From positions 62,001 to 126,000 of the forward strand of contig RSEE01000142.1 in assembly GCA_003971905.1 (NCBI GenBank): DNA of 64,000 nucleotides, in the 5' to 3' direction. Source of the DNA: Moniliella sp. 'wahieum' (taxonomy: Eukaryota). Shown here piece after piece: positions 15,415 through 38,549 of the stretch; positions within the stretch are counted from its first letter, which is position 1, and every line of letters starts with the position of its first letter. Made by a program: the position numbers and the translations under genes. A model generated the notes under the pieces. It was not told where the DNA came from, ran no database searches, and was given only the letters and a program-made list of their open reading frames with translations.

Positions 15415-18400
15415 ATGTCGCAGAGCTCGGTGTTTGGCGCTGCGCCGCCGCGCCAGCGCTCCCGCCTCAGCTTCAAGGGCAAGCTCGCCAGCAAGGGCAT
15501 CAGCACCGACCGCCTCCTCCGCGACCTCAAGACCGTCCAGGCCGAGCTCGCCCAGATGGACCAGGACGACGTGGACCTCGACTCGCTCCTGCCCATCACC
15601 AAGCAGCTCGTCCAGCCCACCCTCATGCTCCACAAGGACCGCGGCGTCAAGATCGCCCTCGCGTGCTGCCTCGCCGATGTCCTGCGTCTCTTTGCGCCCG
15701 ACGCGCCCTACACCGCGCTCGAGCTGCGCGTGCGTACCCCCCCCCCCCTAGCTCGCGTCGCGTGTGCGCACTAACCCCCCCCGCCGCTTCCCCCACAGGA
15801 CATCTTCCAGTTCTTCATCCACGAGCTCACGCTGCCCGCCAAGACTGGCCACGGCTTGGCTGTGCCCCAAGGCCCGCGCTACTCGGACTACTTTTATCTC
15901 GTCGAGTCCCTGAGCACCGTCAAGTCGATCGTGCTTGTATGCGACCTGAATGGCGCGGAGGACATGATGACCGACCTGTTCCAAGGCTTCTTTGAGATTG
16001 TCTCGTACGTCCTTGGCTGCGGTGTGTGTTGATGCGGGTCTTTTTGTGTGTGTACTTACTAGCCCCGGTCCGCGCTGCGCAGACCGACGATGGCCAAGAA
16101 CCTCGAGATCTGCATGGCGGATATCCTGGCCCAACTGGTGGACGAGGCGCAGCAAGTGCCCGAGCCGGTCCTCGAGCTCTTGCTGGTCAACTTTAACCCC
16201 AGGCGATCAAGGCCAATCCCGCCGCGCACAATTTGGCCGTGCAAGTGTGCCAGGCGGCCGAGCACCGGCTGCAAAAGTATGTCGCGCACTATTTTACCGA
16301 TGTCATCACCTCGTCCCTTGACGATGAGCAGGACCGGAACGAGCGGGACGGCAACCTGACCCGCACCTACACGCTCATCATGGAGATCAACCGTTCCGTT
16401 CCGCCTCTTTTGCTCAACGTGGTGCCCCAAATGGAGGGGGAGCTAACGTCGGAAGACCAGAGCTTGCGCTTGATGGTCACGCGCGTGTTGGGCCAAATGT
16501 TTGGCGAGCGTCGTTCGCTCGCTGCGGCCGGCTCAACGTCGGAAGGTCTGGCAGAGGGCGACTTTGCGCGGACGTACCCGGGCGTATGGAAGGCGTGGCT
16601 GCGCCGTGCCAACGATAAAAGCTATCATGTGCGCATTGTTGGCTCGAGTCGGCCCAGGGCATCCTACGCTACCACCCTTCGCTCGTGCCCGATATGATTC
16701 CCATCTTGACGCAAAAACTGCTCGATCCGGATGAAAAAGTGCGCACGATTGCGGCCCGTGTGCTGGGCAGCATGGATTACGAAACGGCACTGCATCGGAC
16801 GCCCAAGGTGCTGCTGGAAGCTCTGGCGGAGCGGTGCATGGACAAGAAACGTACTGTGCGGGAGAATGCAATGAACGCGCTGGGCCGCCTATTTCACCTT
16901 GCCTTCCCTGAAATCGAGAGCCACGACCGGGCGGCATTGAGCAATTTGCCTGGATCCCAAGTGCGGTGCTTTCCGTGTTGAAAACGTCGGATGTATCACC
17001 AAGATGTGGCGGATGTGGTGGAACGGTGGATTTTGCCCTTCCCTTCGTATGGGCTGGGCTCGAACCAGACCAAACTCCGTTCCTCCCAGTCCTCTTCCCA
17101 AGGTTCGAGCCAGTCCCAGAGCCTGACGGCCGGCGTGGCGTTTACGGGGCAGCAGATGAATCGGCCTGGGTGGGTCGGCTGCTGTTGGTGCTCAAGTATG
17201 GGGATGGGTTTACCAAGTCGGTCATCTTTAAGCTGGGCAACCTGGTCGAACCGCTGAGCATCTGGGCCCGGTTTGTCGATGCGTGTGAAGCGTACAATGG
17301 GGGCACGATGGACGAGGACGAAGTGCGTAAGAAGCAGGAGCTCAAAGTGTTGCTCAAGGCGGTGGCCAAGGTGTTGGGGGAGCAACCGGGGGCGGATAAA
17401 GTGGCGAGTGAATTGCTCGAGTTTGCACGGATGAATGATCTGCGTGCGTACCGCCTGTTGCGGGTCAGTATGGACCCGAAACAGGACATGAAGAGTCTGC
17501 TCAAGGCGCGCTTGGAGCTGCGTCGTCGTCTCGAGGCCAACAACAAGTCGCTCGTCCCGACCCTGATGCATTTTTGGCGCGGGGCCAGTTTCCCGCTGGT
17601 CAACCGCACCACGGTGAGCCAGTTGCTCAAGGGCATCCAGCAAGGCCGCCTGGCTCGTCGGCCGCGAGCCAGGCCAGTGCCGATTCCCTCTTGCCCCTCG
17701 GCCCCAACAAGGTGAGCTTGGCGGGTACGAGGTGTTTGTGGAAAACGCGACGGCCGTCTTGACCCAGGTGACCAAGTCCCACCCCACTATGCTCATTCCC
17801 TTTGTGCCCGAACTGATCCGGATCGTTCGCGATGGCGAGGCCAGTGGCGACGAGAACCCGTATGCGACGACGGTGGCGCTGCGTGCGCTGGCGGTGATTG
17901 CTCGTGGGGATCGACAAGCGACCAAGTTGATGCGCGAGCCCAAGGCCATCGACGCCCTCTGCCATTTCGCCCTCGAGGGCCAAGTGGAAGAAGCCAAGTT
18001 TGCCACCGAGACGCTGGCGGCGATGAGCGAGCGCGACACGTTGCTGCGGCAAGGCGAAGGTGCGGCGCGGTACACGGCGCCCGGCGGGGCGCCGCTGGCC
18101 AAATCCGATCTGCTCACCGCGCAACACGCACTGCACACGTGCTCACTACGATTTCCGATCAACTGTGTGGTACGGGAGGGCAAGTTGGCCAGTCACCTGG
18201 CTGCGCTCCTGGCTTTGGTCAAGTACGCGCCCGATGTATTTGAGGACCGGGCCCAGTCGATCATCAAGGACGTGCTGGCCGCAATCAAGCGGCCGTGGAT
18301 GGAAGTGAAGGACGAGGCTGGCGGCATGCGCGCGGTCCAAGCCGAAGAGTGGATGGAGGAGGAGGAGCAAGAGGAGTGGGTCGAAGCGGAGGATGTGGAC

Positions 18401-19590
18401 GACAATACGCGGTCGCGCATGCTGGGCTTGCGGGTGATCACCAAGCGGGCCGAGGTGTATGCGCATACCGAGCACGCCGAGATGACCGTCAAGCCCATCT
18501 GCGGTTTTTGTACCATGCCCTGGGCGCCGGCGAAGTGGACAGCGCCACGGGCGAGCCCAAGAAACCGAATGCGTTGCCTGCCATGCCGGGCCACGCGCGC
18601 GCCTGGCTGCGCTTCACCTCGGCCGCCTGCCTGCTCAAGTTGGCGCGCCACAAGGCGTATGCGATGCTGGTGACGCGCCAAATGCTGCCGTTGGCATTTG
18701 TGGTGCAAGACCGAAGCTTTGGTGTGCGCAACCTGTTCTTGCGCAAGCTGTGCGCCTACCTCTCGTGCAACAAACTGCCCCCGGCGTTTTATGCGGTCCC
18801 TTTCCTGGTTGCGTTGGACCCCGAAGAGGAAAACTTGCATCTGGTGCGCTACTTTTTGCGCAAAGTCATCTGGGGCGTCTCGACCGCCCAACGGTTCAAG
18901 ACGGTGGAATACACCTTTGCTCGCTTCCTCCACCTGCTTGCGCACCACCCCGACTTTCACCGGGAGGACGTGACGGAAGCGCTTCAGTTTGCTCGCTATG
19001 TCGACTTTTACCTGACCAGCGTGGCCAACGAGGAGAACATCAATTTGTTCTGGTACATGTGCAGCCGGCTCAAGACGCTTCGTGCGGCAGACAGCGTCGG
19101 CGCAAGTGAGAACTTGTATGCGCTGTGTGAGCTGGCGCAGCTGCGGATCAAGCGCAAGGCACTGTCCAATGGCTGGACCATTGAACCCTGGCCGGGCAAG
19201 GTGGCGATGCCCTCGACATTTTCCGTCCCTTGCCCAACAAGGAAGTGCAGAAGGAAATTTACTCGCGGCAGTACTTGCCCGAGGTGGTGCGGCGGCTGAC
19301 GAGGACTTGGACCAAGTCTCCAGCCGCAAACGGCCGCCGGCCGAAAAAGTGATTGACCTTCCCAAACCAACCAAGACGTCCCGCGCGCTCGCGCTCGCCA
19401 GCCCAGCCCCACCGACGATTCGGACGAGGAGATGGAAGAAGCGCAAGAGCAGGCTGAGGCCACACCCAAACCCACGCGGGCGCGGCCTAAGCCTAGGGCG
19501 GCCAAGGCCACGGCCTCGCGCGCGGTCGGCGCTGCGGACGAGGTTCCGAGGACAACGAGGAAGAGGAACAGGAGGATGAAGATGAGGGGG

Positions 19591-19916: not shown

Positions 19917-20982
19917 TCAGGCGGGCGGCGCGTCGGCATACGAGCCTATCCGACTGGCTAGTCGACTGAGGAAGAGGTACGCCACCACCGCAGCGGCAAA
20001 TGCGACTTTGCGTTGGCCTAGACTGAACAAGGTGCCGAACATGCCCCGTGGGGGCGGCGCATTCGGCATGTCGTTGACCTTGCCTCCCCGGTTGGCTTTC
20101 CGGTTGGCTCGCCGCGCCGCCGGCCCCGTCAGAAGCCGCTCTTCCGTCGCGCGGGGGGGGGAGCACGGTGACGGAATCTACCGCGGCGGTGGACCGAGTC
20201 GGGACAGGAGCGGTGGCAGGATCAAGAGAGGCAGGTGGGTCGGGGGCGCTGGACGGGGGTGGGGCGGGCCGCTGGCCCATGTTGGGCAGGGGGTGGCGGT
20301 CGCATGCGCGTACTCGGGAAAGAGCGCAACAAATTTACGTTGCTTGATGTTCCAGGCGTGGGAGGCCTGTGCGTACGCCCTCCGATCGGCAGCGCTCGCC
20401 GACACACTTCCGGTCGTCATCTCTTCGCCCGTCATGAACGACAGCAGGCCCACGAGACTAGCCCCGCGTCATCGCGTCAGTTGGGTCAGTCAGGCGTGCA
20501 TCGTGCGCGGCAAGCAGAGGGGGAAGGGACGTACATGTTGGCCACACTCCAGCTGGGGTTCCAGCTGCCAGGATGAAAGTCGCTCATCGAGGTGCAGATC
20601 TTGGTGTTGGGACTGAAACGGCCACTGGGCGTCTGCACCTTGATGCCCCTGGACACCGGCCAGGCGGGGGTCAGCGAGGCGTCGCGAGCAAGGGACCCGG
20701 GGAGGAGACGTACGGAGGCTTGAACGGGTAGTCGCTCGGGAAGAGGAGTTGGCCCCAGTACTCTCCCCGTCATAAGGGGTGTCGGGGGGGCCACGGAGAA
20801 GGAAGTGCCACTCGAGCACGTTGTCTTCGCGCGGACGGGCATAGCAGTAGGGCGGCGCATCGGCTTCCATGTTGATGGCCTCCTTTGCGAGCTGGGGGAC
20901 GGGAAGCAGCGTCAGCAGAAGAGCAATGGGGCGCAGGGCGGGATGGACAACATACGCGCTTGGCAGCGGCTTTGCTGGCCAT
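19917..20982 (-). CDS. UBC6: ER-anchored ubiquitin-conjugating enzyme E2 (Ubc6/UBE2J2)
   Basis: [106 protein letters not shown]-terminal hydrophobic anchor [13 protein letters not shown]. Three short introns. Confidence 0.93.
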
Positions 20983-21948
20983 GGTGGCGGGGAGCACGGG
21001 CGATGGCGGTGGCGGCTCGGCGGCGATGGTGGTGGATTGAGCTGATTTGGCCCGCCAATCGCAGCGCCTCAGCGCCAGCCGCATGCAACTTTCAAAACGC
21101 CCGCCTCTTGCGTGTGTTGCATTGCACCCCTGCGCTTCAATGTTGCAAGTAGCACGTGCAGTGCTGAAACATTCAACGTTCAAACATTCCACGCGCCACT
21201 CACTCGGTGGCGGCGCTGACCTCATCGACCTCCGCTCTCCGAAAGCTATTTATACTGAACTAGTAATACTATGTGCGGCCCGCCCTGTACGCGCCCTTTT
21301 TCGGCGCTTCGCTAGAGAAGCAAGCCCCGAAAATACTCGGTGCGTACCCACGCCCAAGTCAACCCATCTCCGATTATCGCCTCACGTCTCAAGCGCCAAC
21401 CTGTAGCGTCCCGGTCAGATTGATATCAACGGTTTATCGCGCTCAACTGAGCGTTTTGATATCCGCTACGCACTGTCCCCTGCTGAATTTCTCGCCCCCA
21501 AGAAATCGTGCAACAAAATACCTTGTGGAGGTAGTAGGGCACTTGAAATACTGATCGAACTGATCTCTGGTAGGCGCGCCTCCATTCTCGGCGCCATGCA
21601 GTAGGGAGACGAGCACATCAGCAGGGCGTGTCTATTTTCGGCCGCCAAACCCCAATCTCGGCCGTGCGGTGATCTCGGTCTTTGCGGTATTGGCACTCAC
21701 TGTGGAGGGTTCGCGGTTAGGTTAATTGCAGTAGCTCCAACAAACACATGCACACTGCAATACAATCCACGCTGCGTGGTTTGATGGTGCTCCGTGCGCC
21801 CCTTGCCCCAACAGCACACGCCACAAAGGTTTATAAACGAGGCTCTCTGGGGGCATACGCGTTTCGAGTCGCCACCAATAACTCTTTCCTTCCAGCTGCA
21901 TCCGCCTCGCCTCTTTTCGTCTGCGACCCAACACCGAACAACAACGCC

Positions 21949-23217: not shown

Positions 23218-24131
23218 TCGAATGATGTGCTGAGGCCTGGGCGTGCTGCATTGGTCAGTCACCCAAAGGGACACGACCAGCGGCTTGCACCAGAGGGGGG
23301 TTGTGTATCGAGGAGTTCTCTTTCTTCCGCAGCCGTTCGTATAGCCGAGCAGCAATGGACACTGAACATACGAACGTTGTGAACGTAGTAGACTCTCTTG
23401 TTTTCGCTTTGTCACGCTCCTCTTAGGTAATAAGAAGGCGCCGTATCTTCTTGGCGTGCATGTTGCTTCGCCCTGCCAGCGATGCCTGGCCTGGCGTTGC
23501 GCGGGCTCTGGTTATCGATCTTGTCTGCGAGCGGGCGCTCGCTGAGCACGGACATGTGACAAGGGAGATGCAATCCACGCTGGAGGAGCCGGGGGGCGCG
23601 CGGAACACCGGACGCGGAAACGCGATAAATGAGCGGAGCGCGGGCGGTAGGGTTGCTGCTGCGCGGGGCGCGGCGTGGCTTTGCGTCTGCGGCGGCCGTG
23701 CACGAGAAGGTTTGCGCCGGCACGGGCGCACTGTGGAGCGTGACCATTCTTCTGGTGGCGGGCGCCGCACCACACCCCTGTCCACCTCACCCGTCACCAC
23801 CCCCGCCGCCCCGCACGGCGCCAGTGCGCGTGCGTTGGGGCCCACGCCCCGCTGTCTCAGCGGGCGCGCAGCGGGCGAGTGTCGGGCGGAATATCACGCA
23901 CCGCACGCCCGCTCATGCGTCGCGTGGGCGGCGTGGCAGCGTGTAGGGTTGGCCCAGGCCGCCCAGCCTGCCACACTGCTCAGGCCGGCCGCGGCGGACG
24001 ACGGACTAACCCCCTCGACACGCGACCAGCGCCCCCCGGCCTTTGCCCAACCCCCCCCATCCATCTCCCACCCGACGACGACGCCCAGACCTCCAGCCTG
24101 TTGCACTGCGTCGCGCCTCTCCGCTGCGACC

Positions 24132-26649
24132 ATGGCTCCTTCGCTCGTCTCGACGCCGCCCCGGCGTCCGACCCCTTTGTCCGCCGCCCCCTGCACGCCG
24201 TCCGCCGCGCGCCCGCCCCTCCGCCCCCGCCCGTGCCCGCGACGACACGGCCGCCGCCCAGAGTCTGCGCGCCCAGTTCCCCGACCAACTGCGCCAACTC
24301 CGTGTGCTCTTCCCGACTGGTCCGATGAAGACCTGCTCTTTGTCCTCGGCGATGCCGGCGGCGAGGTCGAGGCCGCCGCCGGCCTGATTGGCGACGGCTT
24401 TGCGACCCAGTTTGCCTCGGTCAAGACCCACCCCCCAAGAAAGAACCCCGGAGGGCACCCTGTTCCTTCCTCCAGCCCCGCCCCTGCCTCGGTCGCGCGT
24501 GCCGGCCGGCCTGTCTCCTCGGCTGCCGGCCGGGGCGGCGGCCGGGCCGGCCGCGGGGGCCGTCCCCAGGGCCCCGGAACCAAGTCGAATGCCTCGTCGG
24601 ATGGCAAGACGGCCGCTGCACCTGCACCTCCTGCATCTGCGCCCGCCCCCAAGCCCGCCGCCTAGTTGGGCCGACAGGATCAAAACGTCGCAGGCCAACA
24701 AGGCCGCTGCCGTGGCCGCCGCCCGTGCATCGCGCGCTGCGGCCCAAGCGTCCCATGAGCCCCCCAAAGCGGACGATGCACCGCAAGAGTGCCACCGAAG
24801 ATGCGTTCCCGCCAGTGAACGAGTCGGCGCCCTCGTCTTCGTCCCCGGTTGCGCCTGCGGTGCCGCCTGCGGCGACAGGCGACGCTGCATCCAAGCCCGC
24901 TATGAGCTGGGCCCAGATCGTGACCCACCCCAAGCCGCTCCCGCCGCTGCGGCCCACGAGGAGCCGCGCCCTGCCGAAACGGAAGCAACCGAGGCGACCG
25001 AATCGCACGAGACTGCACCCGCCGCCGCCGAGATTGCGCCGGAGCACGAGGCTGCCCCGCTCCCGAGGCACAAGAGAAGAACCGGCCCCTGCCGCTGCCC
25101 CCGAAGAAACCGCGGGAGCCGAGTCAGGGTCTCAACCCCACCCCGAACCCCTCCCTGAAGTCACTGAATCTGCTCCGGAACCTGCTTCGGAGCCCGCGCT
25201 AGCGCGGCGCCCGAACCGGAACCCGAGGCGGTGCAAGAAGAACCCCCCAAGGCATCCTCGCCTGCACCTGCACCTGCACCTGTTCCTGCCCCGCTCCTGC
25301 TGCTGCTCCTGTCTCTGTCTCTGCCCCCCCCAGCGCCAGCAGCCGCTGGAGGAGCCATCAAGATCCCTGCCACGCGCAAGCAAGCCCAGCCGCTCGTCAT
25401 CCCCGGTGGTCCTGCGTCGCTGGAGAGCTGGGTGTGCAGTTTGGTTCGTTGGGGGTCGAGTCGGAGGCTGCGCTGCGCTGGCTTCCGCTGCGCCGACTCC
25501 CGCCGCTGCCGCTGCACCTTCTCGGCCGCTGCCCTATGGATGCGAGCGCAGCTGTCGAGCCGCCGCGTGGCGCGGCGCCTCCCGGTGCGGCCTCGTTGCC
25601 GCCCAACCCATTGACAGGAGCGCCGGCCATGCCGACGGCCGCGCCGGGCCTGTACGACCGGTTCCATCCGTCGTTTGCGCAACCTCCGCATGCGGCGCAG
25701 CCGGCGCGCAGCGGCTGCCTCAGCCCCCTCCCGTGCCCACGCCCAATGGTGCCTTTGCCACCCGCCCATCCCGACGGCGCAGCCCATCCGCCGACTGGGT
25801 TTGAGGGGTACACGGGGTACGGGTTCCCCTCGGCGCCGGCCCCGACGGCAGCCACGGCGCCGTATGGGCTGGGCGCGACGCCGGGCGCCCCCTGGCGCGG
25901 GGCCGACCCAGCCGCCGCCGCCGCCGGCCCAGCAAGAGTACGGGTACCAAGGGCGCGATGCGCGCAACCTGAGCCACTTTTACGGCGGCGCGTACGACCC
26001 CAGTGCGCTGCACCTGCGCGGGGAGGACAAGGCGGCCGGCGCGGAGCCGGCGGCAGCCGTGCCGGGGGCAGCGGTGCCGACGCCCGGACAAGCGGGCCCG
26101 CCGACGCAGCCGCCGGCGCAGCCGCAGCAGTACCCGGGCATGATGCCGTACTTTTACCAGCCGTACTACATGCCGAACCAGTACCAGTACGGGCAGCCGG
26201 GGTACATGCCGGTGTATGGGCAGGGCCAGCCGCAGGTGGGCAAGTATGCGCCGGGGCAGGAGGGGGGCTACTACGCGACGCCGGGCACGGAGTTTGGAGC
26301 GGGCGGCGGCGGGGCCGTCGGAGTACAGCAACAAGCGTACCAGCCGGGGCTGCTGAAGCCGACGGCGCCGGCGGCGGGTGCGGGCGCGGGCAAGTCGTCG
26401 CCGGCGCTGGCGAATGCGGGGCTGGACTACCGCTTTGACAACAAGGCGGGCGCGGCGCGGCGGGGCGCGGGCGCGGCGGCGGGCGCGCTGGAGCAGGGCA
26501 CGCCGCGCTCGACGCCGGCCAGCGCAGCGCGCGCCCAGCCGGGGCAGAGCTTCTACCACTACGGCTACAACCAGACGGGCTACGGCTCGTACCCCTACAC
26601 CTTCCCGCAGGGCAACGCACGCGCTGGCGCCAGGCCTGAGGGCACGTGA
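24132..26649 (+). CDS. DEF1: RNA polymerase II degradation factor Def1-like protein (CUE domain, low-complexity Pro/Gln/Tyr tail)
   Basis: CUE-like QLRVLFPDWSDEDLLFVLGDAGGEVEAAAGLIGDGFATQFASVK, plus KPAMSWAQIV, VQFGSLG and GMMPYFYQPYYMPNQY. Frameshifts present. Confidence 0.8.
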
Positions 26650-26839
26650 CATGAATCGCATTCCATCGCCTGGGCTGCTTGGGGGAGCTAGCTACGAGCA
26701 TTCTATAGGCCACCGCACGGCGCCCGTGTGGCGTGTGCCCACCGGCTGCCCCTTCCCACCGCCACCGCCCCATAGCATGCACCCACACTTATAGCATCCG
26801 CAGCATGTAGCATCCAGGCCACCCCTCCCCCACCTCCCC

Positions 26840-29209
26840 ATGTCCCTCGCCTCCCCCGCGCCCACCACGGCGCCGTGGCCGTCGGCGACAACTACCCCGT
26901 CGTCCCCCCTGCCCTGCCCTGCCTGCGCGCCACCACCGTCCCCGCTCTCCACCGCACCCCACTCGGCGTGCCCGCCGCCCCCCTCGCGCCCGCCGCATCG
27001 GGAGGCGGGTGGGTGCCGAGCGTTGGGCCGTCGATGGCGTCGGTACCGCTTGGCTTTGGTCCGGTTCCGTCGCTCGGCCCCGACCTCGCCCTCGCCCTGC
27101 CGCCCGCGGCGAGCGGGGTGGGAAGCGGACTGCCACTGGCTGAGCCCAGTCCCGCACCTGCGTTGCTTGCTGTCGATGCGTGCTCGACGTTGGAGGGCGA
27201 GGCGCGGGCGCAGGCGACGGCCATCATCCACTCGCTCGTCACTGCCGCCTGGCAGTTGGGTTGGGACCGGACTACGGTCGCCAGCCGGATCACCGAGCAA
27301 CTCAATCAGCGCCTGGGCCGCTCTTGGTCGACGATCGTCGGGCCGTCGTTTGCGTTTAATGTGCGGGAGCGGCCGCACAGCTTGCTCAACCTCCGTACGT
27401 GTGCGCCTCGTTGATTTGCTTGTTGCGTGTATTGTGTTGTGTTGTGTCCTGTTGGGCAAGGGTTGACCGTGTACATACATGCGTGACTAGGGATTGGCGA
27501 CTGGTGGGTGGCCGCGTGGAAGGGCGAAGAGGTGGGCGTGGGCAAGTCGAACAATAAGGAGGTGGGAGTGTACCGTGTCAAGGGGATCCAGACCGAAGTG
27601 AGCAACAAGGTGATGGAGGTGGTGCGAGAATCGATGGCGCAAGCGTCCCTGGTCGGTGCCGAACTTACCTCGCACATTCTCCAACGGCTTCACCAGCTCC
27701 TCGGGCCCGGCTGGCACCTGGTACCCGAGACGAATGTCAGTCTCTACACGCAGTTCCCGTCGGCCTTCTGTTTCCGTGCGGGCGAACAGGATTGGACCGT
27801 GTGGAACGAGCGGGACGCCAGCACGCATTCCCTCGGCTCCCTCAGCACCCTTGCTTCCGGCATGGTCTTGACTGGGACCGGTGTCCGTGACGTGCGTGAC
27901 TTTAGTCTGTCCGGCTTGTCTGCCTCGCAGAAATCGTACGCCACGTCAGCCTCGACGACGCTGGTGCAAAAAGTGCAAAACTACGTGGCGAGCTACGCGG
28001 CACAAGTGCAAGCCGGGCAGGAACGGGTGCAGATTGGCTCGTCGCACATGACTGATGCGTCGTATCACAATGCGGTATTGGATGTTTCCCTGGCGGCGAT
28101 TGCCGAAGCTTCGGCTACGGTGGACAAGCAACAGACCACCACCCTTGTCACCAACCGTCTGCGTACCCTCTTTGGTCCGGCCTGGCACGCACACATTGCC
28201 ACCGACACCTTTGTGCCGGTAAATGCGCCGGCGCTGCAGGTGCTCACCTACCGTCTGGACGACAAGTTTGTTACGCTCTGGCAAGCGCAAGCCACCGCAG
28301 TGCAGACCACATCCGAACCCGAGATGGAGATGGGGATGAAGATGGGCCACGCCGCAGCCCTGCAGCACAATAACAATAGCAGCAGCCTAACGACCACCCA
28401 CCAGGCCCTGCAGCACAACAAGCCTAGTCTGCTCAAACAGGCAGCGGGAGTAGCTGGTGGAGCTGCGATGGCCGGGTTGGGGTATGGACTGTACAAGCAC
28501 CATCAGCATACCGACCACAGCGATCACAACCCTCCCCCCGCGCTCAGCCGGGATCTGGATACGGTCCACCAAACCCTCAATACCACCACACACATCCAAA
28601 CGGGACCCAGCACGACCAGCGTTGACGCCCCCAGCCCCGTGGCCGTTGGAACGTTGGCTGCGGCGCACAAAGCCATCCGGGTCGAGGAATCTACGCTGGC
28701 GGCAGCCGAGCAGGCCGTGCTGCTAGAGGTGGCGGCGGAAGCGGTGGCGTGGCACTCGATGGCCGCGCGCACGTTTGCGCTCTGGCTCGAGTCGGCGCTG
28801 AACCGGACGATGAAGTGGGATGGGTGGCACGTTGTGGTGGAACGGGGCGAGTTTGGTGCTTCGTCCTACTCGGACTACCGCGAGGCGCTGAACCGGATCC
28901 GGTTTCACTGGGACGACAAGTACGTGACGGTGTGGCAAGGCGCGCAGCCCACTGGCCGGGGCCGGGGTGTGCGTGGACGCGCTCCGCGCACCTCGGTGAC
29001 GGATACGTTTGTGTGGAGTGAGCAGGTGCCGATCGGGACGGATTGGACGTGGGTGCAGGAGGGGAGCTTGCCCCTCCCCCTCGGCAGGTTCGATTGCGGG
29101 ATCGGTGTGGGGCTCCGGTTCAGCTGGATCGGACTCGGGATCGGTTAGCTCATCCGACTTAGCGTCCTCGTCCAACTTTACAGCTTCCACCTGGTGGTCC
29201 AAGCTGTAG
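26840..29209 (+). CDS. Uncharacterised protein with four tandem divergent dynein light chain (LC8)-like domains; probable C-terminal PTS1 (-SKL)
   Basis: Four roughly 85-95 aa repeats with the LC8 pattern (strand-S-x-L/M, two helices, L-x3-(L/F)GPxWH/GxxW, strand, F-x-(I/L)G/D-x3-V-x-x-W): about 27163-27525, 27565-27810, 28027-28290, 28672-28941. Phase-1 intron 27395-27490 joins the two ORFs in frame. Start needs a 1-nt correction (alternative ATG 27034). The SKL frame is reached by a 70-nt intron (29018-29087) or a 1-nt indel; otherwise the stop is at 29148. Confidence 0.75.
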
Positions 29210-30229
29210 TCTCTATCCCTCCGAGTCATGCACGATGCGCTTTGCGTCATCTCGAGGAAACAAATGTCCCTCTCTCGCCTCTCTCTTCGCCCACGTCCAA
29301 ATCATCTATAGCCCCACAGGTTTTCTCCTTCCCCTGCCCTGCCCCGAATGTCATCACTCCTGGGCCACAATAGGGCGAATACATTTTGGTCAACTTGACA
29401 GCTTTTCTCACTGGTCTTCCTGGTCGCTTTGTTATCATCTCTCCCCCAGGGCCGAGAAGAGGTACAGTAATAGAAGTGTTGGTACAAAACGTCATATAGC
29501 GGTGTCGGTATAACCTAGACGGCTGTCCTGGCAAACTGTGAGTACCTGTCGAGGAGGCAGGCCGGGGACAGGCAGGGTGGACAGGCTCGTGTCTCCCTCC
29601 CCAAAACTCGCAGTGTGCTCTGTATGATTTAGGGGGGCTGGGTGGTGCGCTGCGGATGGCCTCTCGGGAGGGGGTCGAACACAGCACCGGTAGGGCAAGG
29701 CTTCTCTGCCCTGGAACGCTGGCCTTGTGCGAGCATATGTGCGATCCAAGAGGGGAGATGGGACGCGATCTATTCCAAGCGGTGGGGGTCATGAATATAT
29801 CAGTACTCCGTGGGCGGAGCGCACAGACTGGGCCCGTGCCCGCCAGGCGCCCAACGAGGCCGCCCACCGCAGCGGCTGTTTCTCGGCACATGTGGAGTGT
29901 GCTGGGGTGCCAGGGTGGCGCAGTGCTCCCACCAAGGAGAGATCCAAGAGCGGCTGACGTGCTGCCGTGCCAGCCGTGCGCTTTGGCTTCGCTTGGCCCC
30001 TCGTGCTCTCCTCTGCGAACGACCCCTTAGGCCGCACCCGCCCCCCCACCGCCAGCATACTAGCCTGCCCGTCCCCACCGGAAGATGGAAGCTTAAGCAC
30101 ACATCCTCTGGCCCCCAGCCCATCTCTCTCGTATCCGTTTTGCGCATGCGGTGGATTAGTAGCTGCTGTGCATCGTGCGCTCTTCTTGCTCCGTCGCTCG
30201 CATCCAATGAGAAATGAAGTTGAAGTGTC

Positions 30230-30237
30230 TATATAAA
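30230..30237 (+). promoter_or_regulatory. TATA box of the second LC8-repeat gene
   Basis: TATATAAA about 140 bp upstream of ATG 30376, with CCAAT at 30204 and a CT-rich leader downstream. Confidence 0.6.
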
Positions 30238-30375
30238 GCCAAAGCACAAGCCTGTTCCCTTCCCCCACCCCTTTCCCGCAGCCCCTACCCCCTCTTCTTC
30301 CCACCGTTGCAAGCGTGACCACTCGCGCCCGTACCACCGCGCACGTCCCATCTACTGCCCCTCGCCACCATTATC

Positions 30376-32381
30376 ATGTCCTCCTCGCTTTCATCTTCGC
30401 TGTCCATCACCGTGTCCACCGTCGAGTCGACGGTGCAGGAATCGCTGACGTCGCTCGTCAGCGCCGCGCTAGCGCGGCTGAATGGCGCGCCGCTGCTGGA
30501 GCGCACGCGTGCCGAGCTGGCGCGGTACATTATCGCTACCGCCGAAGCGCGCCACGGACTGTTTTGGCACTTTGTCATGGGCAGTGACTGGGTGTATGCG
30601 TCGCACGAGCAGGCGAATGCGGCTGGGGCACGGTTGGAAGGCGTGCTGGAGTACCAAGGCGAACCGATCAAGTTTACCCTGTGGCAAACCAAGTGGACCG
30701 GCGCGGCGGGCGCAGGGGCGCCGGGTCCACCCCAGTTCACCGCCTCGACCCTCCCGGGCCCGATCCAGTCCCGCCTCGTGGTCCTGATCCAACAGCTGTA
30801 CAGCCTGCATGGCGCCCAGGCCGCCGCTCTCGCCCCCGTCTTTCTCGCCGACAACCTCAATGCCAGTTTCGGTTCGGGCTGGGTCGTCGTCGTCGGCACA
30901 GCAGCGGCGTCGTTGCAGAGCAGCGTGTATGCCACGTTTCGTACGTTTTTTTCATTCCATTTCATTTCTTGTCTTCTTGCCTCACGCCAACCTTGGCATA
31001 CACTGACCTCGCTTGCACCCTATCGACGCTCCTACAGAGATTGGCAAGGACGTGTTCACGCTATGGAAAGCCCCGGGCGGGAGCCAGGAGGAAGAGACTT
31101 CGGTGTACCTGACCGGGACGCGCTTTGTCCGCCAACAACCCATCCCTGCTCCTAGCTCCATCCTGACCCCTCGCAGTATCGACGTGGTCGTGCCCTCGGT
31201 TCAGCCCGTTCCGCAGCTGGCTCCCCAGCCGGTGGCTCCGTCTGTTTCTACAACGTCTGTTGTGGAAGTGCAGCAGGTTCCCCAGGTGGTGTACCAGCCT
31301 GCTCCTCAGCCTGCTCCTCAGCCCTTCTTCCAGCCCAGTCCGCAGCCTGCCCCGCAGCCCATCTTCCACCCGGCTCCCGCTCCGCAGCCGGCGCCTGAGC
31401 TGACCACCCAGGTGGTCCAGATCTCCCAGCCCGTTCCGCAGCCTGTGCCACGGTCTATCCCGCAGCAGCTTGTGCCGCAATCCAGTTCGCAAACGTTCGT
31501 GGGGGTGCCTGCGACGCTGGCTCCGCCTCCCGCGGTTCCGACGACGCAGACGCAGCAGTCCGAATGGTCCGAGCTGCACACTTCGATCCAACACTCGCTG
31601 GTTGTGCCCGAGGCGTCGGTGGACAAGCTGCGTTCGTCGATCGTGATTGAGCGTACGACGCTCGCTGCGTCCGAGCAGAGCCAAGTGATCAACCTTGTGA
31701 TTGCCACCTTGCTTCAGCACATCTCTGCGGGCAAGACCACGTCGCCTGCGGACTTGGCGGTGCTGAAGCAAACGCTTTCGACGCAGCTGGATGGATGGCA
31801 AGTGCTTGTCGGTCCCTACGGCTCGCACGTCCGTAGCGATGCCAAGAACCTTCTGGCGTTCTGTACGTTTTTCCCATACTCTTTTCTGCTTGCTATGGCT
31901 CCAGCCGCGTATTGACTCTGTGTGGGCAGCCATCGCGGGCTACTACCTCGCGCTTGTCCGCCCCTCGCGGAGCACCATCAAGGTGTCTCTCACGACGACG
32001 ACCGTGGGCGAGAAGGCTGTGGAGCAGGTGGGCATTGTGGAGCAGGCGGTGGATGGGCAACCGTCGGGCCAAGTCAAGGTGGTTGCCTCGGACTGGAAGA
32101 CGGCGAACGACCAGGTGTCGGCGCGCCTGTACGGGATCATTGGCGGCGCGCTCTTGTCGCAACAACAGCACCTGCTTGCCCTGGACGAGCTGGCGCACTA
32201 CCTGGGCCAGCGGGCCAGTGCCGCGCTCGGCGCCGGCTGGACGGCACAGGTCTCGGAGCAGCCGTTTGCCCCGGCCATCGCCTCGGTGTTGGGCGCGAGC
32301 TATGTTGTGGCGTCGGCGCAGGTGGGGGGCAAGACGTTGCACGTGGTGCTGTACCATTCGGCGCCGCGCCCCCATCTGTGA
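30376..32381 (+). CDS. Second uncharacterised protein with four divergent LC8-like domains and a Pro/Gln-rich central linker
   Basis: Exons 30376-30940, 31038-31862 and 31930-32381 splice in frame with no frameshift. Domains about 30406-30693 (ELARYIIATAEARHGLFWHFVMGSDW), 30733-31075 (FLADNLNASFGSGWVVVVG), 31640-31964 (LDGWQVLVGPYGSHVRSD) and 32073-32360 (LAHYLGQRASAALGAGWTAQVS). Ends APRPHL*. Confidence 0.8.
31290..31460 (+). repeat. Imperfect 12-bp coding tandem repeat (CAGCCTGCTCCT/CCG) encoding (QPAP)n
   Basis: cagcctgctcctcagcctgctcctcagccc...cgcagcctgccccgcagccc...ccgcagccggcgcct within the linker of the second LC8-repeat gene. Confidence 0.7.
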
Positions 32382-32896
32382 AAGGGCGTGTTTGGGCGGT
32401 TGGATCCATGGTGTCTAGCCTCGTTGGGGGGGGGGGGGGGGGCGTCACATGAGCACCACATTCTACACGGACACCTCTTCCCCTGATGCTGGGGGCTGGG
32501 GCCATTTCCCACCAGCTATAGCGTGTGATATGATCTCTGATTGTTTTGATGCCTAGCTGTGCACGAGGAGGGCGGTAGGGGATGTGACAGGATGGCGTGT
32601 TGTGGGCTGCCTGGGGCTGGGGAGCGGGAGGAAAGAGGAGGCAGTCGCATGGCCAGCTGAGTGTATCCGTCTGTATTGGATGGGTACCAGAGGCTCTGTT
32701 CTGTCGTGCGCTGCGCTGCGCCGCTTACGTGTGCGTGCAGCTAACCCTACGCTCGCTGCACCCGGTGCGGGGGACGGGATGACATAAGCAGGCAGGCGGC
32801 TGGGCCAGTGCGCGCACCCTCGCAGCCACCCGGACGAGCTGAGCCACTCAGCACGCCGCCCCAGGCCTTCGTCCCAGCCGCCTCCATCCCTCCGCC

Positions 32897-34213
32897 ATGG
32901 CCGACGACCGCCCCCTTGTCGTCGACAACGGCACCGGCTTCGTCAAGGCTGGCTATGCCGGCAGCAACTTCCCCGCCCACATCTTCCCCTCCATTGTCGG
33001 CCGCCCCATCCTGCGTGTCGAGGAGCGCGACCATGTCGATGTCGAGATCAAGGACATCATGGTGGGCGACGAGGCCGCCGCCGTGCGCAACTATCTCCAG
33101 GTCTCCCAGCCGATGGAGCATGGTGTGGTCAAGGACTTTGCCGACATGCGCCATGTGTGGAACTACACCTTTGACGAGAAACTCAAGGTCGACCCCCAGG
33201 GCCGCAAGATCCTTCTGACCGAACCCCCGATGAACCCCAAGCGCAACCGCGAGGAGATGTGCCAGATCATGTTTGAAGAGTATGGGTTTGACGGCGTGTA
33301 TGTGGCGATCCAGGCGGTGCTCACCCTCTATGCTCAGGGGCTGCAGACCGGCGTCGTCGTCGACTCGGGCGATGGCGTAACCCACGTGGTGCCCGTGTAC
33401 GAAGGATTTGCTCTTCCCCACCTCACTCGCCGTCTGGACGTGGCCGGACGCGATGTGACGCTACCTCATCAAGCTGTTGCTGATGCGAGGCTATGCCTTT
33501 AACCGCACGGCCGACTTTGAGACTGTGCGCGAGGTCAAGGAAAAGCTGAGCTACGTCAGGTGAGTGCCCGCCCCCCTCACTCACTCCTTGCACACCCTCC
33601 TGACCCTTCTCACCAGTTACGACATTGCCATGGACAAGAAACTGGCTGAGGAGACGACAACACTGGTGGAGCAATACGAAGTATGCAATGCGGCCCCTTT
33701 CTCCCTTCTCCCCGCTCCCTTCTCGTAGCCAGGGCCCCTAATCGCTAACGGTATATTCTCTCTTCAGTTACCCGATGGCCGCATTATCAAGGTTGGTTCC
33801 GAGCGCTTTGAGGCACCGGAATGCTTGTTCCAGCCCGAGCTGGTCGATGTGGAGCAGCCAGGGATGGGAGAGCTGTTGTTTAACACAATCCAAGCTGCTG
33901 CTCTGGACACGCGTGCTGAACTGTACAAGCACATTGTGCTTTCCGGTGGTTCGTCCATGTACCCTGGTCTGCCCAGCCGTCTGGAAAAGGAGATGAAACA
34001 ACTCTACCTCACCCCGTCTTGCACGGCGACGCTTCCCGTCTGCCTGGCTTCAAAATCCGGATCGAGGACCCACCGCGTCGCAAGCACATGGTGTTCCTTG
34101 GCGGTGCGGTGCTGGCCGACATTATGAAGAACCGCGAGTCGTTCTGGGTCAGCCGGCAGGAGTGGTACGAAAAGGGTCCTGCGGCGCTGGACAAGCTAGG
34201 CCGTGACGCTTAA
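32897..34213 (+). CDS. ARP2: Actin-related protein 2 (Arp2/3 complex)
   Basis: [116 protein letters not shown]. Introns 33560-33616 and 33681-33767. Two small indels. Confidence 0.97.
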
Positions 34214-34289
34214 CTAGTCAAATGAATGCATACTTGCTGCTGTCTGCTAACGCTGGGAAAAGGGAGAGAGGAGGGCAAGGCAGTCCAAT

Positions 34290-36528
34290 TCATTCAGAGT
34301 CGTCTTCCGACGCCTCCTCTGCTTCATCATCGAGCAAGGCTCGGGCGGCCTGGCGAGATACCTTGCCTTTTGGCTGGCGTGGCTCTTCCTCCTCCGAGCT
34401 TTCATCCGACTCTTCCGACTCGTCCACAATAAAGTCTTCCAGGCTGCCGGCCTGGTCGGCTTCTTCGTCGGTTTCCTCCTCGGAATCCGATTCTTCCGCG
34501 TCGGTGGGCTGCTCTTGGCTTTCCTCTGGATCGGAGGAGGACTGCAAGGCATTATCTTCCATTGCCTCGCTACCCTCCTCGTCGCCACCCTGCTCGCCTT
34601 CTGCCTCGGAATCCTCCTCCTCGGCCGATTCAGGGCCCGAGTCGTCAGCCCCAGGGCAATGTCTTGGGTGTCCCCATCTTCTTCTGCTTGGACCACAGGC
34701 GCCTCCTCCGTCGCATCCTGAACCAGGTTGGCGCGCATCTCGAGTTGCGCCAGAATCAGGTCCAGTCGGCCACGCAGCTCGGTAAGCTTATCCCTCCCTT
34801 TGAGGCGCGCTTCCAGCGCGGCATTCAGCTCGGCCAGCCGGTCGACCCAGGCCGGCAAGGTCATTAGGTAGCGCGTGTGGGTGATGAGTACCAGTCGGAC
34901 CCACTGGATGAGGCGGTGGGTACGCATGGGTCCCGTGATCGGATTCTCGAGTCGGTCCAAGGCCGCTTGCAATACCTGGACCGCAACGGGGCCGACCAGG
35001 CGTTTGACCGCTCCCTTCATAACCGCCGCAGCGAGGTGGGCGTGGACCAAGAGTTCAGTGACCATCAGCTCATTCGAAGCTGTTACCCTTCCGTCAAGGC
35101 ACGCGCCAGCGCCGTCGCATCCATCTTGCCGAGCGAAATGCCATAGGTCACAGACCCAGTTGCCGAGTCGGAGCCGAGGGAAGCATGCATGTCGAGTCCC
35201 TTGAGGCGCGCCTCGAGCGACGGCTCGGCCACTTCCATCTCTACGTCCACCGGCGAGTCGCGCTGACTTGGGGGCAGCGCCTTTCCCACCACCACTTCGG
35301 TCGGCTGCGTGTCGATGGAGAGGAAAGAGGGGTCGAGTTGCGCCAGCTGAGCCAAAGGACATAGGGCCGGTCTGGCGAAGCACGAACGACCACCGTCATC
35401 ATTCCCAGGTTGGCTCCATTGGATACGACGAGTGTCACTTCGGTCTTGCCAGAAGAAGAGGCGGAGGGCAGGGTGGCATCCACCACGGTTTGGCCTTCAG
35501 GTACTGTCGCCTGGACCGTCGTGGTTGTGGGCACGGTGAAGCCCTTGGACTTGCGTCGCTTTTTGCTCGAGCCAGCTGCGTCGGAATCAAACGTGCTGGG
35601 CACGAGAAAGAGATACGTTGTGCCTGTCACATCGACCGGCACGACCCTGGTCGCGCCCGTCGCGTCGGGCCCGTACGCGCCAAGGGCGTAGATGGGGGCT
35701 GAGGTGACGAGGTGCGCTTCAGGAACGGGGTGCCTGCTTGCTTCTTCTGGTACGGACCAAATCCGTGCTTCGTTCGACCCACGGGTGGTAGAGATAAATC
35801 GCCTGGGACCGATCCAGGTCAACTGCGTGAGCGGTTCGCCATGGCTCGTGAACGTGTGGGAAGGGGCGGGGGAGCGGGGAGCCCGGAGCAGCAAAGGAAT
35901 ACAAGTGCACGTCCGTGTCGCCCACAAGGAGCCCCGTTGCGTTAGAGGCGAGTACCTTGGGCAACTTGGAGTCTGGCACCTCGATCCGGCCCAACGGAGA
36001 GCAGGTCGTCGCCGCCCCGTCCTGAACATCAAACATGCGCACCATCCCGTCCGCATACCCAGCGTAGAGATAGTTCCCCTCGGAGGTGATACTGATTACC
36101 GACCGTTCCTCCGCAGTCAGGAGATCGTCGACCAGAATTTGGGTCACCACAGCCCGGCTAGGGCTCAAGAGCAGCACACGGCCATCGTGCGTGCCAAGCG
36201 CCAGGCGGGCGGGAGGGGTGCTGGTCTGTGTGCCGAGGGAGCGCCGTTTGGCGTGCTTGGCCACGGGGGGCGAGAGCCAGGCGAGACAACGTGTGTGTAC
36301 GTCGGCAAGTTCAAAGTCGGACAGGAGCTTGGTGGGCGTCTGGGCGCACTGGCCGGCGTCGGTGTGTGGCGGGGAGGAGAGGGAGAAGACGCGCAACCGG
36401 TCCTTGCCCGTCTGGGGGAGCAGGGAGGCGAGCAGGCTCCCATCTGGCGAAAAGGCATGCAGATCGGGGCCAGAAGAAGCGGACTGGGACGACCGGCGTG
36501 CCTTGCGGGCCGCTTTGGATTTGGCCAT
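34290..36528 (-). CDS. UTP5: U3 snoRNP / SSU processome subunit Utp5 (WDR43-like): WD40 region, Utp12 domain, acidic tail
   Basis: AFSPDGSLLA..DRLRVF, LALGTHDGRVLLLSP, YAGYADGMVRMFDV; Utp12-like IQWVRLVLITHTRYLMTLP..LEARLKGRDKLTELRGRLDLILAQLE; D/E-rich C-terminus. Frameshifts present. Confidence 0.8.
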
Positions 36529-36815
36529 GGCGTGCAGGCTGGGGAAGAGAGGGGAGTTGGACTTGTAGAGAAAAAATAACCCAGTAGTGGGTGAGCGTTG
36601 AGGGCATCAGAAAAAAAATGGCGGAACTGCGGCCATTCCGCCTCGGCCGGGCGATGATCGCGTACTATCCCTATGTGGTGGCGCCCAGGACGGGGGGTAT
36701 CTGGCATGACCATGACCTATGAGTTCCCCGCCATCCTCTTTCCTGCCGTACTTGTCTCGACAATACAATGCCATGGCTGTTGGGCCCTGAGAATCACTAA
36801 GGAACCATGAAAAAC

Positions 36816-37908
36816 TTACTTCCAAGCCAGAGCCTTGCGAGCCATAGCCAGCGCGCCCTCCTGGGTTTTGTTTCCTCCAATAAAGCCCGAGGCGTGGACG
36901 AAGACGCCGCCAGGAATGCCCGTGACGTCCGACAGCTGGTCATCCCGCACACCGCGCCACGGCTCGGGGAGAGCCTTGCGGGAGATGAAGCTCGATTCGG
37001 AGACGGGGACCGCTTGAATCCGCCAGCTGCCCGCCTCGTCCGGGAAGACAACGTAGAGGATGTTGTGTCCTCGGTCAACCCCAGCTTCTTCTCCCGCCCG
37101 AAAATGTGCGACTTCCAATTGACGTACTCGGTGAGGAGGAGAATGCGCCCATCGGCGTCGGGAACGAGCTCGGTGCGCTTGGCCAGAGCCGCGTCGACAA
37201 GTTCCCGAGCAGGCAGCCAGGACTTCATCGTCCACTCGACGCGGTTCCAGAACTCGGTCCCGGCCATAGCGCTGGCCTGCTCAAAGCGCTCCATCCGGCT
37301 CGCATCGTTCTTCAGCTCGGGCTCGTTCCAGGAAGGGTTGAGCGTGCCCACGCGCGCGCTTAGGTCCGTGCGCGACGTGTACCGCGGCTCCCCATCAAAC
37401 GCCGAGATGCCATTGTCAATCCCGTCGATGGCCTGCACAAAGTCGTCGTACAGCTTAAGCCACAGTTCCTCCACCAACTCCTTGTCCAGCTTGGGGAAGT
37501 TGTGAGCGAGGATTTCTTGGCCAAAATGCCTGTCCTTTCGTTAGCATCGAAGGGTAATCGGTCGGCGCGCCGGGAGCTGGCGCGCGCACGGGAGGAGTGA
37601 AGGGGGAGGGGGGGGAGGTACACATACTTCCAAGTCAGACCGGCCGAAGAAAGCTTAATGGCGTGGTTGTCGTCAAAGGTGGTGTTGAAGCCGCGCTGGT
37701 GATGGTCGAACCGTTGCTTTTCCGGCTCGTACGTGGCACCTACATCGACCACAATCGTGCCGCGGTCGATGAGTGCCGGGTCACGAGTGCGGGTAAGGGG
37801 GAGCTGGCTGAAGCGGGGCAGACGGCGCAAAAGCGATACGGCCAGCGCCTCGTCAGCGTGAAAGTCGCCCGAGTGGGTCACGATTCCGAGGGGCTCTTGG
37901 GCGGACAT
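36816..37908 (-). CDS. MYG1: MYG1 (GAMM1) family exonuclease
   Basis: THSGDFHADEALA, VVDVGATY..RFDHHQRGF, KLSSAGLTWK|HFG, AIDGIDNGI, SRKALPEPWRGVRDDQLS..FVHASGFIGGNKT. One intron about 37531-37627. Confidence 0.95.
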
Positions 37909-38549
37909 AGTGGTGGGGCTGGGCCGGTGCGAGGACGCTTGGGAGAAAAGGAGTGGCCATGGGGTTTAGGCGGACGTTGCGATTTTGCGAAGAAAAAAAA
38001 AGAGGCAGCGAATGGGTGCGGTCGGCCTTTGCTTGAATTTACCAGTGCTGGCCCCAACACCAATTTCTGCGGGGGAGGGTAGGGTTTGCAATTAGTAATA
38101 GATGAAATTGCAACACAGACACACTGCCCCTGTGGGATGGCTTTTGTGTGGTGTGTCGACTGGGCGAGGCCATCCTTGGTCCGTCCCCAGAGACGTGCTG
38201 AAGGCGGGGCGAGGCGTCGCGAGCGCAAGCTCGCGTGCGTGCAAGCCAGCGGCAGGCGTCTGGCCGGACGCGGCCGGTCCGTCCCTCTGCCGGTCCTCAG
38301 CATCCCAGCCAGGCACTGCCCGCTATGCTCTCCCTTCGCTCTCCCTGGGAGCCTACCTCTGCGCCGTTTCTCTCTCTTCACCTCTGCCCAAAGGTACGTC
38401 TCCTTCCACGCCCCCGTTCCTGATACTGACTTGTCTAGCACAGCGCTGATCCAAGCGTGCAAGCAAGCTACGGCTCAGATGCCCCCGCTTCTGCTACCAC
38501 GAGCGCCTCAACGTGGCCGATAATTGCTGCATGTGTCTGGTAGAGAGCA

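Follow-up and report, generated by a model that had tools for sequence, protein, structure and literature searches.

Within a window of 64,000 nucleotides (nt) of the genome of Moniliella sp. 'wahieum' (contig RSEE01000142.1, positions 62,001 to 126,000; all coordinates below count from the first letter of the window), two genes lie in tandem on the + strand at about 27.0-32.4 kb. Each of these genes, which we term A and B, contains four repeats that resemble LC8, the type 1 dynein light chain. We conclude that this four-LC8-module architecture is real and unusual, and that it is a new variant within a known fold family. That A and B are real genes carrying eight LC8-fold modules we hold with high confidence. 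Taken as a whole, the observations are best explained, in our judgement with somewhat better than even probability, by two real tandem genes whose products each carry four LC8-fold modules on probably disordered linkers and serve as pairing hubs.

Gene models and the eight repeats

Gene A is modelled as two exons (27034-27394 and 27491-29148, + strand), which encode 672 amino acids (aa) and end in a TAG stop, and gene B as three (30376-30940, 31038-31862 and 31930-32381, + strand), which encode 613 aa and end in a TGA stop; the spacer between the genes is 1.2 kb long and contains 59% guanine plus cytosine (GC). Both spliced frames are open, over 672 codons in A and 613 in B. Exon 1 of gene A encodes a 43-aa N-terminus rich in Pro, Ala, Gly and Leu and most of repeat A1, and exon 2, which has a 553-codon open frame and a GC content at third codon positions (GC3) of 0.75, encodes the last strand of A1, repeats A2-A4, the linkers and a 69-aa tail. 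In gene B, exon 1 holds repeat B1 and most of B2; exon 2 holds the last strand of B2, a 188-aa linker rich in Pro, Gln, Val and Ser, and most of B3; and exon 3 holds the last strand of B3, a 36-aa linker and repeat B4.

Measured against the codon usage of the Pfam-supported exons of the window (actin family, malic enzyme, Utp12 and FF domain), the called frame has the best log-likelihood of all six in both genes, including in the first exon of each. The exonic GC3 (0.77 in A, 0.79 in B) and the GC content at second codon positions (about 0.50) match those of the same reference exons, and the gene A intron has a GC content of 0.50, compared with 0.64-0.77 for the first and third codon positions of the exons. 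On the strength of their sequence, we take A and B to be real protein-coding genes with introns. A motif scan placed a TATA-like element at 30230..30235 (+), upstream of gene B and about 145 nt from its ATG. The N-terminus of gene A is uncertain, because the frame of its first repeat opens at 26776 and the codon statistics upstream of the first in-frame ATG, at 27034, are coding-like: between 26776 and 27033 (+) the frame stays open and is the one with the best codon usage. Gene A may therefore have an upstream exon or an N-terminus longer than that modelled. The initial annotation started the gene at 26840, which we do not retain, since the ATG there does not share the frame of repeat 1.

The initial annotation described two adjacent genes on the same strand with four repeats of about 90 aa each, and this description stands (82-97 aa); the three peptide strings that it quoted all occur in the translations, in A repeat 1 (across the intron), A repeat 3 and B repeat 1. 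The gene A repeats, all on the + strand, are A1 (27163..27522 including the intron; residues 44-131), A2 (27562..27807; residues 145-226), A3 (28021..28284; residues 298-385) and A4 (28666..28938; residues 513-603), with linkers of 13, 71 and 127 aa between them. Those of gene B, also on the + strand, are B1 (30400..30687; residues 9-104), B2 (30727..31069 including the intron; residues 118-199), B3 (31634..31961 including the intron; residues 388-474) and B4 (32070..32360; residues 511-607), with linkers of 13, 188 and 36 aa. The repeats singled out earlier as closely spaced, D1-D2 in both genes and D3-D4 in B, are thus indeed only 13, 13 and 36 aa apart, and one module of every such pair is split by an intron.

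Each repeat was left out in turn, and a profile of the other seven was run against the 1329 stop-to-stop open reading frame (ORF) pieces from the six frames of the window. All eight runs brought back the missing repeat, with E-values (E) from 2.4e-8 to 0.01 (A1, 5.1e-4; A2, 2.4e-8; A3, 1.2e-3; A4, 2.5e-8; B1, 1.3e-3; B2, 9.1e-4; B3, 3.2e-4; B4, the weakest member, 0.01), a result that carries a mild circularity in that all rows had been aligned together beforehand. No unrelated piece among the 1329 appeared at E<1 in any of these runs; a profile of the four A repeats alone gave one unrelated ORF piece, at E 0.63. No further copy of the repeat was found in the window, and no canonical LC8; recent DNA-level repeats were limited to remnants of 18-38 nt.

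The eight copies are mutually very divergent, as had been claimed: in the MAFFT alignments, identity to the first row is 10-33%. The two sets of repeats are related to one another: the A-only and B-only profiles align with an hhalign probability of 82% (E 1.1e-5, 32 columns), and the best A-to-B domain pair by BLASTP, A4 against B3, reaches 31% identity, 38 bits and E 3e-10, with A2 against A3 at 27% identity and E 1e-7. The highest shuffle z-scores belong to A4/B3 (13-15), A2/A3 (10.5) and A3/A4 (about 8), the remaining pairs lying between -1.3 and 5.1. Since these three pairs dominate the scores, A and B are not simple collinear copies: the earlier term "two paralogues" holds as regards their relatedness, but not as a one-to-one duplication, A4 being closest to B3 and A2-A4 resembling one another.

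The introns provide a further link among the modules. There are three, all on the + strand and all in phase 1: the gene A intron (27395..27490; 96 nt, GTACGT...TAG) lies directly before the last strand of A1, gene B intron 1 (30941..31037; 97 nt, GTACGT...CAG, GC 0.47) before the last strand of B2, and gene B intron 2 (31863..31929; 67 nt, GTACGT...CAG, GC 0.51) before the last strand of B3. The three introns thus occupy the same alignment position in the repeat unit and share the same phase, and the 5' junctions of the two gene B introns are 75% identical over 28 nt. Because position and phase are shared, we conclude that the module was duplicated at the DNA level together with its intron. 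Repeated DNA-level duplication of an LC8-like module bearing a phase-1 intron before its last strand produced the array, with the intron kept in three of the eight modules and later lost from five, and the locus illustrates cleanly how a domain can be amplified together with its intron.

Relationship to the LC8 fold

In its canonical form LC8 exists on its own, as a highly conserved protein of about 89 aa that acts as a homodimer and is regarded as a small hub. The LC8-like interpretation of the repeats, proposed in the initial annotation, is supported both by profile searches and by the predicted fold. The Pfam family Dynein_light (PF01221; gathering cut-off, 29.1 bits) weakly matches three of the five exon pieces, with E from 6.3e-7 to 1.2e-4: gene A exon 2 (30.1 bits summed over 2 stretches, the best of them A2; E 6.3e-7), gene B exon 1 (25.9 bits over 2 stretches, the best of them B1; E 1.3e-5) and gene A exon 1, with its match in A1 (22.8 bits; E 1.2e-4). 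Gene B exons 2 and 3 gave no PF01221 match among matches up to E 10. Of the eight repeats taken singly, four match PF01221 at E<=10 (best 1.8e-5) and four give no match.

Profiles reach further. Run against the PDB, the eight-repeat profile returned 31 hits, of which the top 19, and 23 in all, are dynein-light-chain or dynein-light-chain-like (DLC-like) chains (best E 1.7e-4), and all 36 hits of the A-only profile are dynein light chains (best E 2.1e-4). Single-sequence phmmer searches of the PDB, made with exon 2 of gene A and exon 1 of gene B, yielded no hit at E<=1; only profiles reach LC8. The Tctex-1 family (PF03645; yeast Tda2) is absent from the Pfam matches of the exon pieces up to E 10 and from the eight-repeat table, and no EF-hand or other Pfam domain was found in the exon pieces among matches up to E 10.

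The best repeat-profile matches belong to the divergent axonemal LC8 family (Chlamydomonas LC10, Tetrahymena LC8_1a/2a/3a and kinetoplastid paralogues), namely 7kzm_P with the eight-repeat profile (E 1.7e-4) and 9y6s_6Q with the A-only profile (E 2.1e-4). As these axonemal chains demonstrate, strong divergence is compatible with the LC8 fold, and so is heterodimeric pairing within one complex. Unlike A and B, the axonemal chains are single-domain proteins of 87-129 aa that belong to ciliary dynein, and nothing links the A and B proteins to cilia or dynein.

We predicted the structures of two of the eight repeats, A4 and B4, with AlphaFold2, using no templates and an alignment made up of the eight paralogous rows, with no canonical LC8 among them. 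Both models are confident (A4: predicted local distance difference test (pLDDT) 85.7, predicted template modelling score (pTM) 0.77; B4: pLDDT 85.8, pTM 0.78) and share one order of elements: strand, helix, helix, strand, short helix, strand, strand. Searched against the PDB with Foldseek, the A4 model gave 72 hits at E<=1e-3, with query-based template modelling scores (TMq) of 0.71-0.80; all matches listed are LC8-type or DLC-like, and they include human DYNLL2 (2xqq) and yeast Dyn2 (4ds1). The B4 model gave no hit at E<=1e-3 (best E 1.6e-3), but again all matches listed are LC8-type or DLC-like, the LC8 chains having TMq 0.57-0.73 with probability 1.00 and the last match listed being a DLC-like domain (TMq 0.40, probability 0.77). 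No Tctex-type chain is described among the matches listed in either Foldseek search. The check by structure prediction and Foldseek that the initial annotation called for thus returned the LC8 fold for both of the repeats that were folded.

Across the alignment of the eight repeats, the Trp of strand 2 is the sole invariant column. It forms part of a Gly-x-x-Trp strand-2 motif present in the repeats, and the strand-2 edge is the best-conserved segment. Hydrophobic core positions are retained in all eight repeats, and no part varies more in length and sequence than the strand-3 region. Sequence profiles and models together support the view that the eight modules adopt highly divergent LC8 folds.

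A and B are not canonical, stand-alone, conserved dynein light chains. They share with LC8/DYNLL1-2/Dyn2 the fold and its element order (2xqq, 1cmi and 4ds1 are among the Foldseek matches), the Gly-x-x-Trp motif and a module length of 82-97 aa; they differ in fusing four modules into one chain of 613-672 aa, in sharing only 10-18% identity with the solved LC8 chains, and in the lack of conservation of the strand-3 region. It is because of this excess length, this low identity and this variable strand 3, which in LC8 contributes to the swapped dimer and the groove, that we do not class them as canonical light chains.

Pairing, relatives and competing explanations

LC8 dimerises by a swap involving strands 2 and 3, and a client peptide binds as an added strand. 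From this behaviour and the invariant strand-2 Trp, we infer both pairing and peptide binding for the modules of A and B. They would keep the basic behaviour of LC8, pairing through the conserved strand-2 edge either with a module of another chain or, across a linker of 13 or 36 aa, with a neighbour in the same chain; paired modules would then bind extended peptide segments, and the A and B proteins would act in the cytoplasm or nucleus as hubs for dimerisation or scaffolding whose multivalency is covalent. We put this pairing-scaffold mechanism forward tentatively, as having somewhat less than an even chance of being correct. The 13-aa D1-D2 linkers and the 36-aa D3-D4 linker of B would favour intramolecular pseudo-dimers, the arrangement suggested in the initial annotation, with chain-to-chain pairing as the alternative.

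Several observations count against the explanation that we favour. Only gene A exon 2 passes the PF01221 gathering cut-off, and then by a score summed over two stretches; half of the single repeats are without any Pfam match; and the B-only profile reaches LC8 chains at E 0.011 only, with 11 of its 29 PDB hits being LC8-type. The A4 and B4 models share the same eight alignment rows and are not independent of each other, and both render the strand-3 region with lower confidence (10-residue blocks at 70-78), as a short helix and not as the swapped strand. The residue after the invariant Trp, which we take to be the interface His of LC8, is His in only four of the eight repeats, which counts against the canonical pairing mode. 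We also considered that the linkers might carry LC8-binding TQT motifs, and rejected the idea, such motifs being not enriched relative to shuffles (3 against 1.2 expected, P 0.13, and 2 against 2.3 expected). Finally, the protein-database searches and the ESM Atlas yielded no orthologue or other relative from which conservation or purifying selection could be read.

Some of these points would fit a different reading, in which the modules have the LC8 fold without LC8-type pairing and act as monomeric binding modules or folded spacers, not as dimerisation hubs. In LC8 the strand-3 region is part of the swapped dimer, and here it is the segment that varies most and that AlphaFold2 renders as a short helix; the half-conserved His points the same way. 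On the other hand, the segment conserved best is the strand-2 edge, two pairs of repeats are joined by linkers of only 13 aa, and a swapped strand could not appear in a model of a monomer anyway. We consider the non-pairing reading unlikely, though it is the most serious of the alternatives.

Next in weight is the possibility that A and B belong to a family that has already been described or annotated, for instance in related basidiomycetes, and that lies beyond the reach of our searches. Gene A exon 2 served as query in a word-indexed search of 5.8 billion clusters, and all 8000 candidates scored there failed to pass. Exhaustive comparison by phmmer with 1.84 billion representatives returned one match, a protein of 478 aa (P0001) at E 9.2e-5, which we rejected as a relative: the match is confined to the Gly/Ala-rich linker between A3 and A4 (query 301-341), the BLASTP E is 5.7, and Pfam gives only sub-threshold or low-complexity matches on this protein. 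The eight-repeat profile found no match among longer proteins. In the ESM Atlas, gene A exon 2 had no usable match, and all matches of gene B exon 1 scored below 0.9; one cluster (0.86), of whose members 18% carry PF01221, is a lead only. In a library as large as that used for phmmer, a match must score about 41 bits to reach E 1e-3, and the A4/B3 pair scores 38 bits, so that relatives as distant from A as B is would be missed. Word-based searches, moreover, let long proteins crowd out relatives, and the source genome seems to be absent from the protein collections: none of 10 ORF translations was matched exactly, although this look-up is uninformative because most of them are exon fragments, and the neighbouring Utp12 fragment found a best match of 57% identity over 38% of the query. 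The term "lineage-specific" used in the initial annotation rests on searches that are blind to relatives as distant as A from B.

Against a family already described stands the literature. The initial annotation knew of no described multi-LC8 protein, and we likewise found none with several LC8 domains in the passages of full-text literature retrieved. There, the only divergent DLC/LC8-like domain described within a larger protein is that of the flatworm TAL/CaBP proteins, a lineage-specific family in which EF-hands are fused to a DLC-like domain (bioRxiv 10.64898/2026.04.22.720116); the other larger context met in those passages is that of expanded single-domain DLC families. Flatworm DLC-like domains are among our PDB and Foldseek matches (5fx0, 5x2d, 9voa), but the TAL/CaBP proteins have one such domain together with EF-hands, whereas A and B have four modules and no EF-hand match. 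We regard an existing description of the A/B family as highly improbable.

Equally small is the probability we attach to A and B being fast-evolving, lineage-restricted orphans with little or no function, the decaying duplicates of an LC8-derived gene: the empty 5.8-billion word search, 1.84-billion phmmer, profile and ESM Atlas searches and the extreme divergence between copies (10-33% identity) would suit such a history, but the frames are intact over 672 and 613 codons, the splice signals are intact, the codon bias is host-like, both folded domains (A4 and B4) gave confident models, and the hydrophobic core positions and the Trp are kept in 8/8 repeats.

We return to paired LC8-fold modules within tandem multi-module proteins. 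LC8 units are known to align along disordered chains like beads on a string, as Dyn2 does on Nup159 (4ds1). Although 4ds1 is among the fold matches, the likeness to A and B is a functional analogy only: in the Dyn2-Nup159 assemblies separate LC8 dimers bind client motifs, whereas in A and B the LC8-like units lie within the chain itself. A bolder version, which we think quite improbable, is a covalent LC8 ladder in which two chains (A with B, or either with itself) zip together in register through four strand-swapped interfaces. Such a ladder, if true, would form a rigid rod offering as many as eight peptide grooves that are not equivalent, would amount to a self-contained version of the duplex scaffolds that LC8 forms with disordered clients, and would have arisen within one fungal lineage as exons of an LC8 gene were duplicated. 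Even short of this, four fused and diverged LC8-fold modules would show that a hub fold can serve as the unit of a repeat array, and A and B would offer a natural system for how LC8 dimer and groove specificity diverge; their practical value hinges on expression and on the existence of relatives.

Linkers and genomic surroundings

The linkers of gene A are composed mainly of Gly, Ala, Ser, Leu and Thr and those of gene B of Pro, Val, Gln and Ser (P 17.5%, V 12.7% and Q 12.4% in the gene B linker), and they are of low complexity and probably disordered. Within the Pro/Gln-rich linker of gene B we observed four degenerate 38-nt direct repeats (31197-31459), whose identity to the reference copy is 66-76%, and at 31295-31323 a perfect 12-nt tandem; local slippage or duplication seems to account for the growth of this linker. 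The linker between A3 and A4 contains a Gly/Ala-rich stretch (28435-28500; gene A residues ~436-456) that ends in a Gly-Tyr-Gly-Leu-Tyr-Lys-like sequence, and P0001 carries four copies of a stretch much like this Gly/Ala-rich linker. The similarity may reflect a shared short motif or mere shared composition. We rejected the Gly/Ala-rich linker of gene A as a transmembrane segment, its maximum hydropathy being 1.3, and neither protein contains any transmembrane-like stretch (maximum Kyte-Doolittle 19-residue mean, 1.3-1.4). No signal peptide was obvious by eye, no predictor having been run.

Around the two genes, Pfam identified PDS5 (17618-19296, +), a weak fragment of a ubiquitin-conjugating enzyme (20493-21068, -), an actin-family protein resembling ARP2 (32843-34124, +), a Utp12-domain protein (34250-35395, -), MYG1 (36800-37965, -) and malic enzyme (57904-58896, -). 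These neighbours are ordinary eukaryotic housekeeping genes with short introns, and their sequences are consistent with a fungal chromosome arm. The name ARP2, given to the downstream neighbour in the initial annotation, is confirmed as far as membership of the Pfam Actin family, and the name DEF1, given to the upstream one, has no Pfam match. The + strand frame ending near 26649 that had been labelled DEF1 encodes a low-complexity protein rich in Gln, Pro, Tyr and Gly. It lies in a very GC-rich region (24000-26650, +; 72.5% over 24001-26000) with long overlapping open frames on both strands. About 40 nt past the gene B stop codon, at 32420-32445, there is a G-rich, homopolymer-like run.

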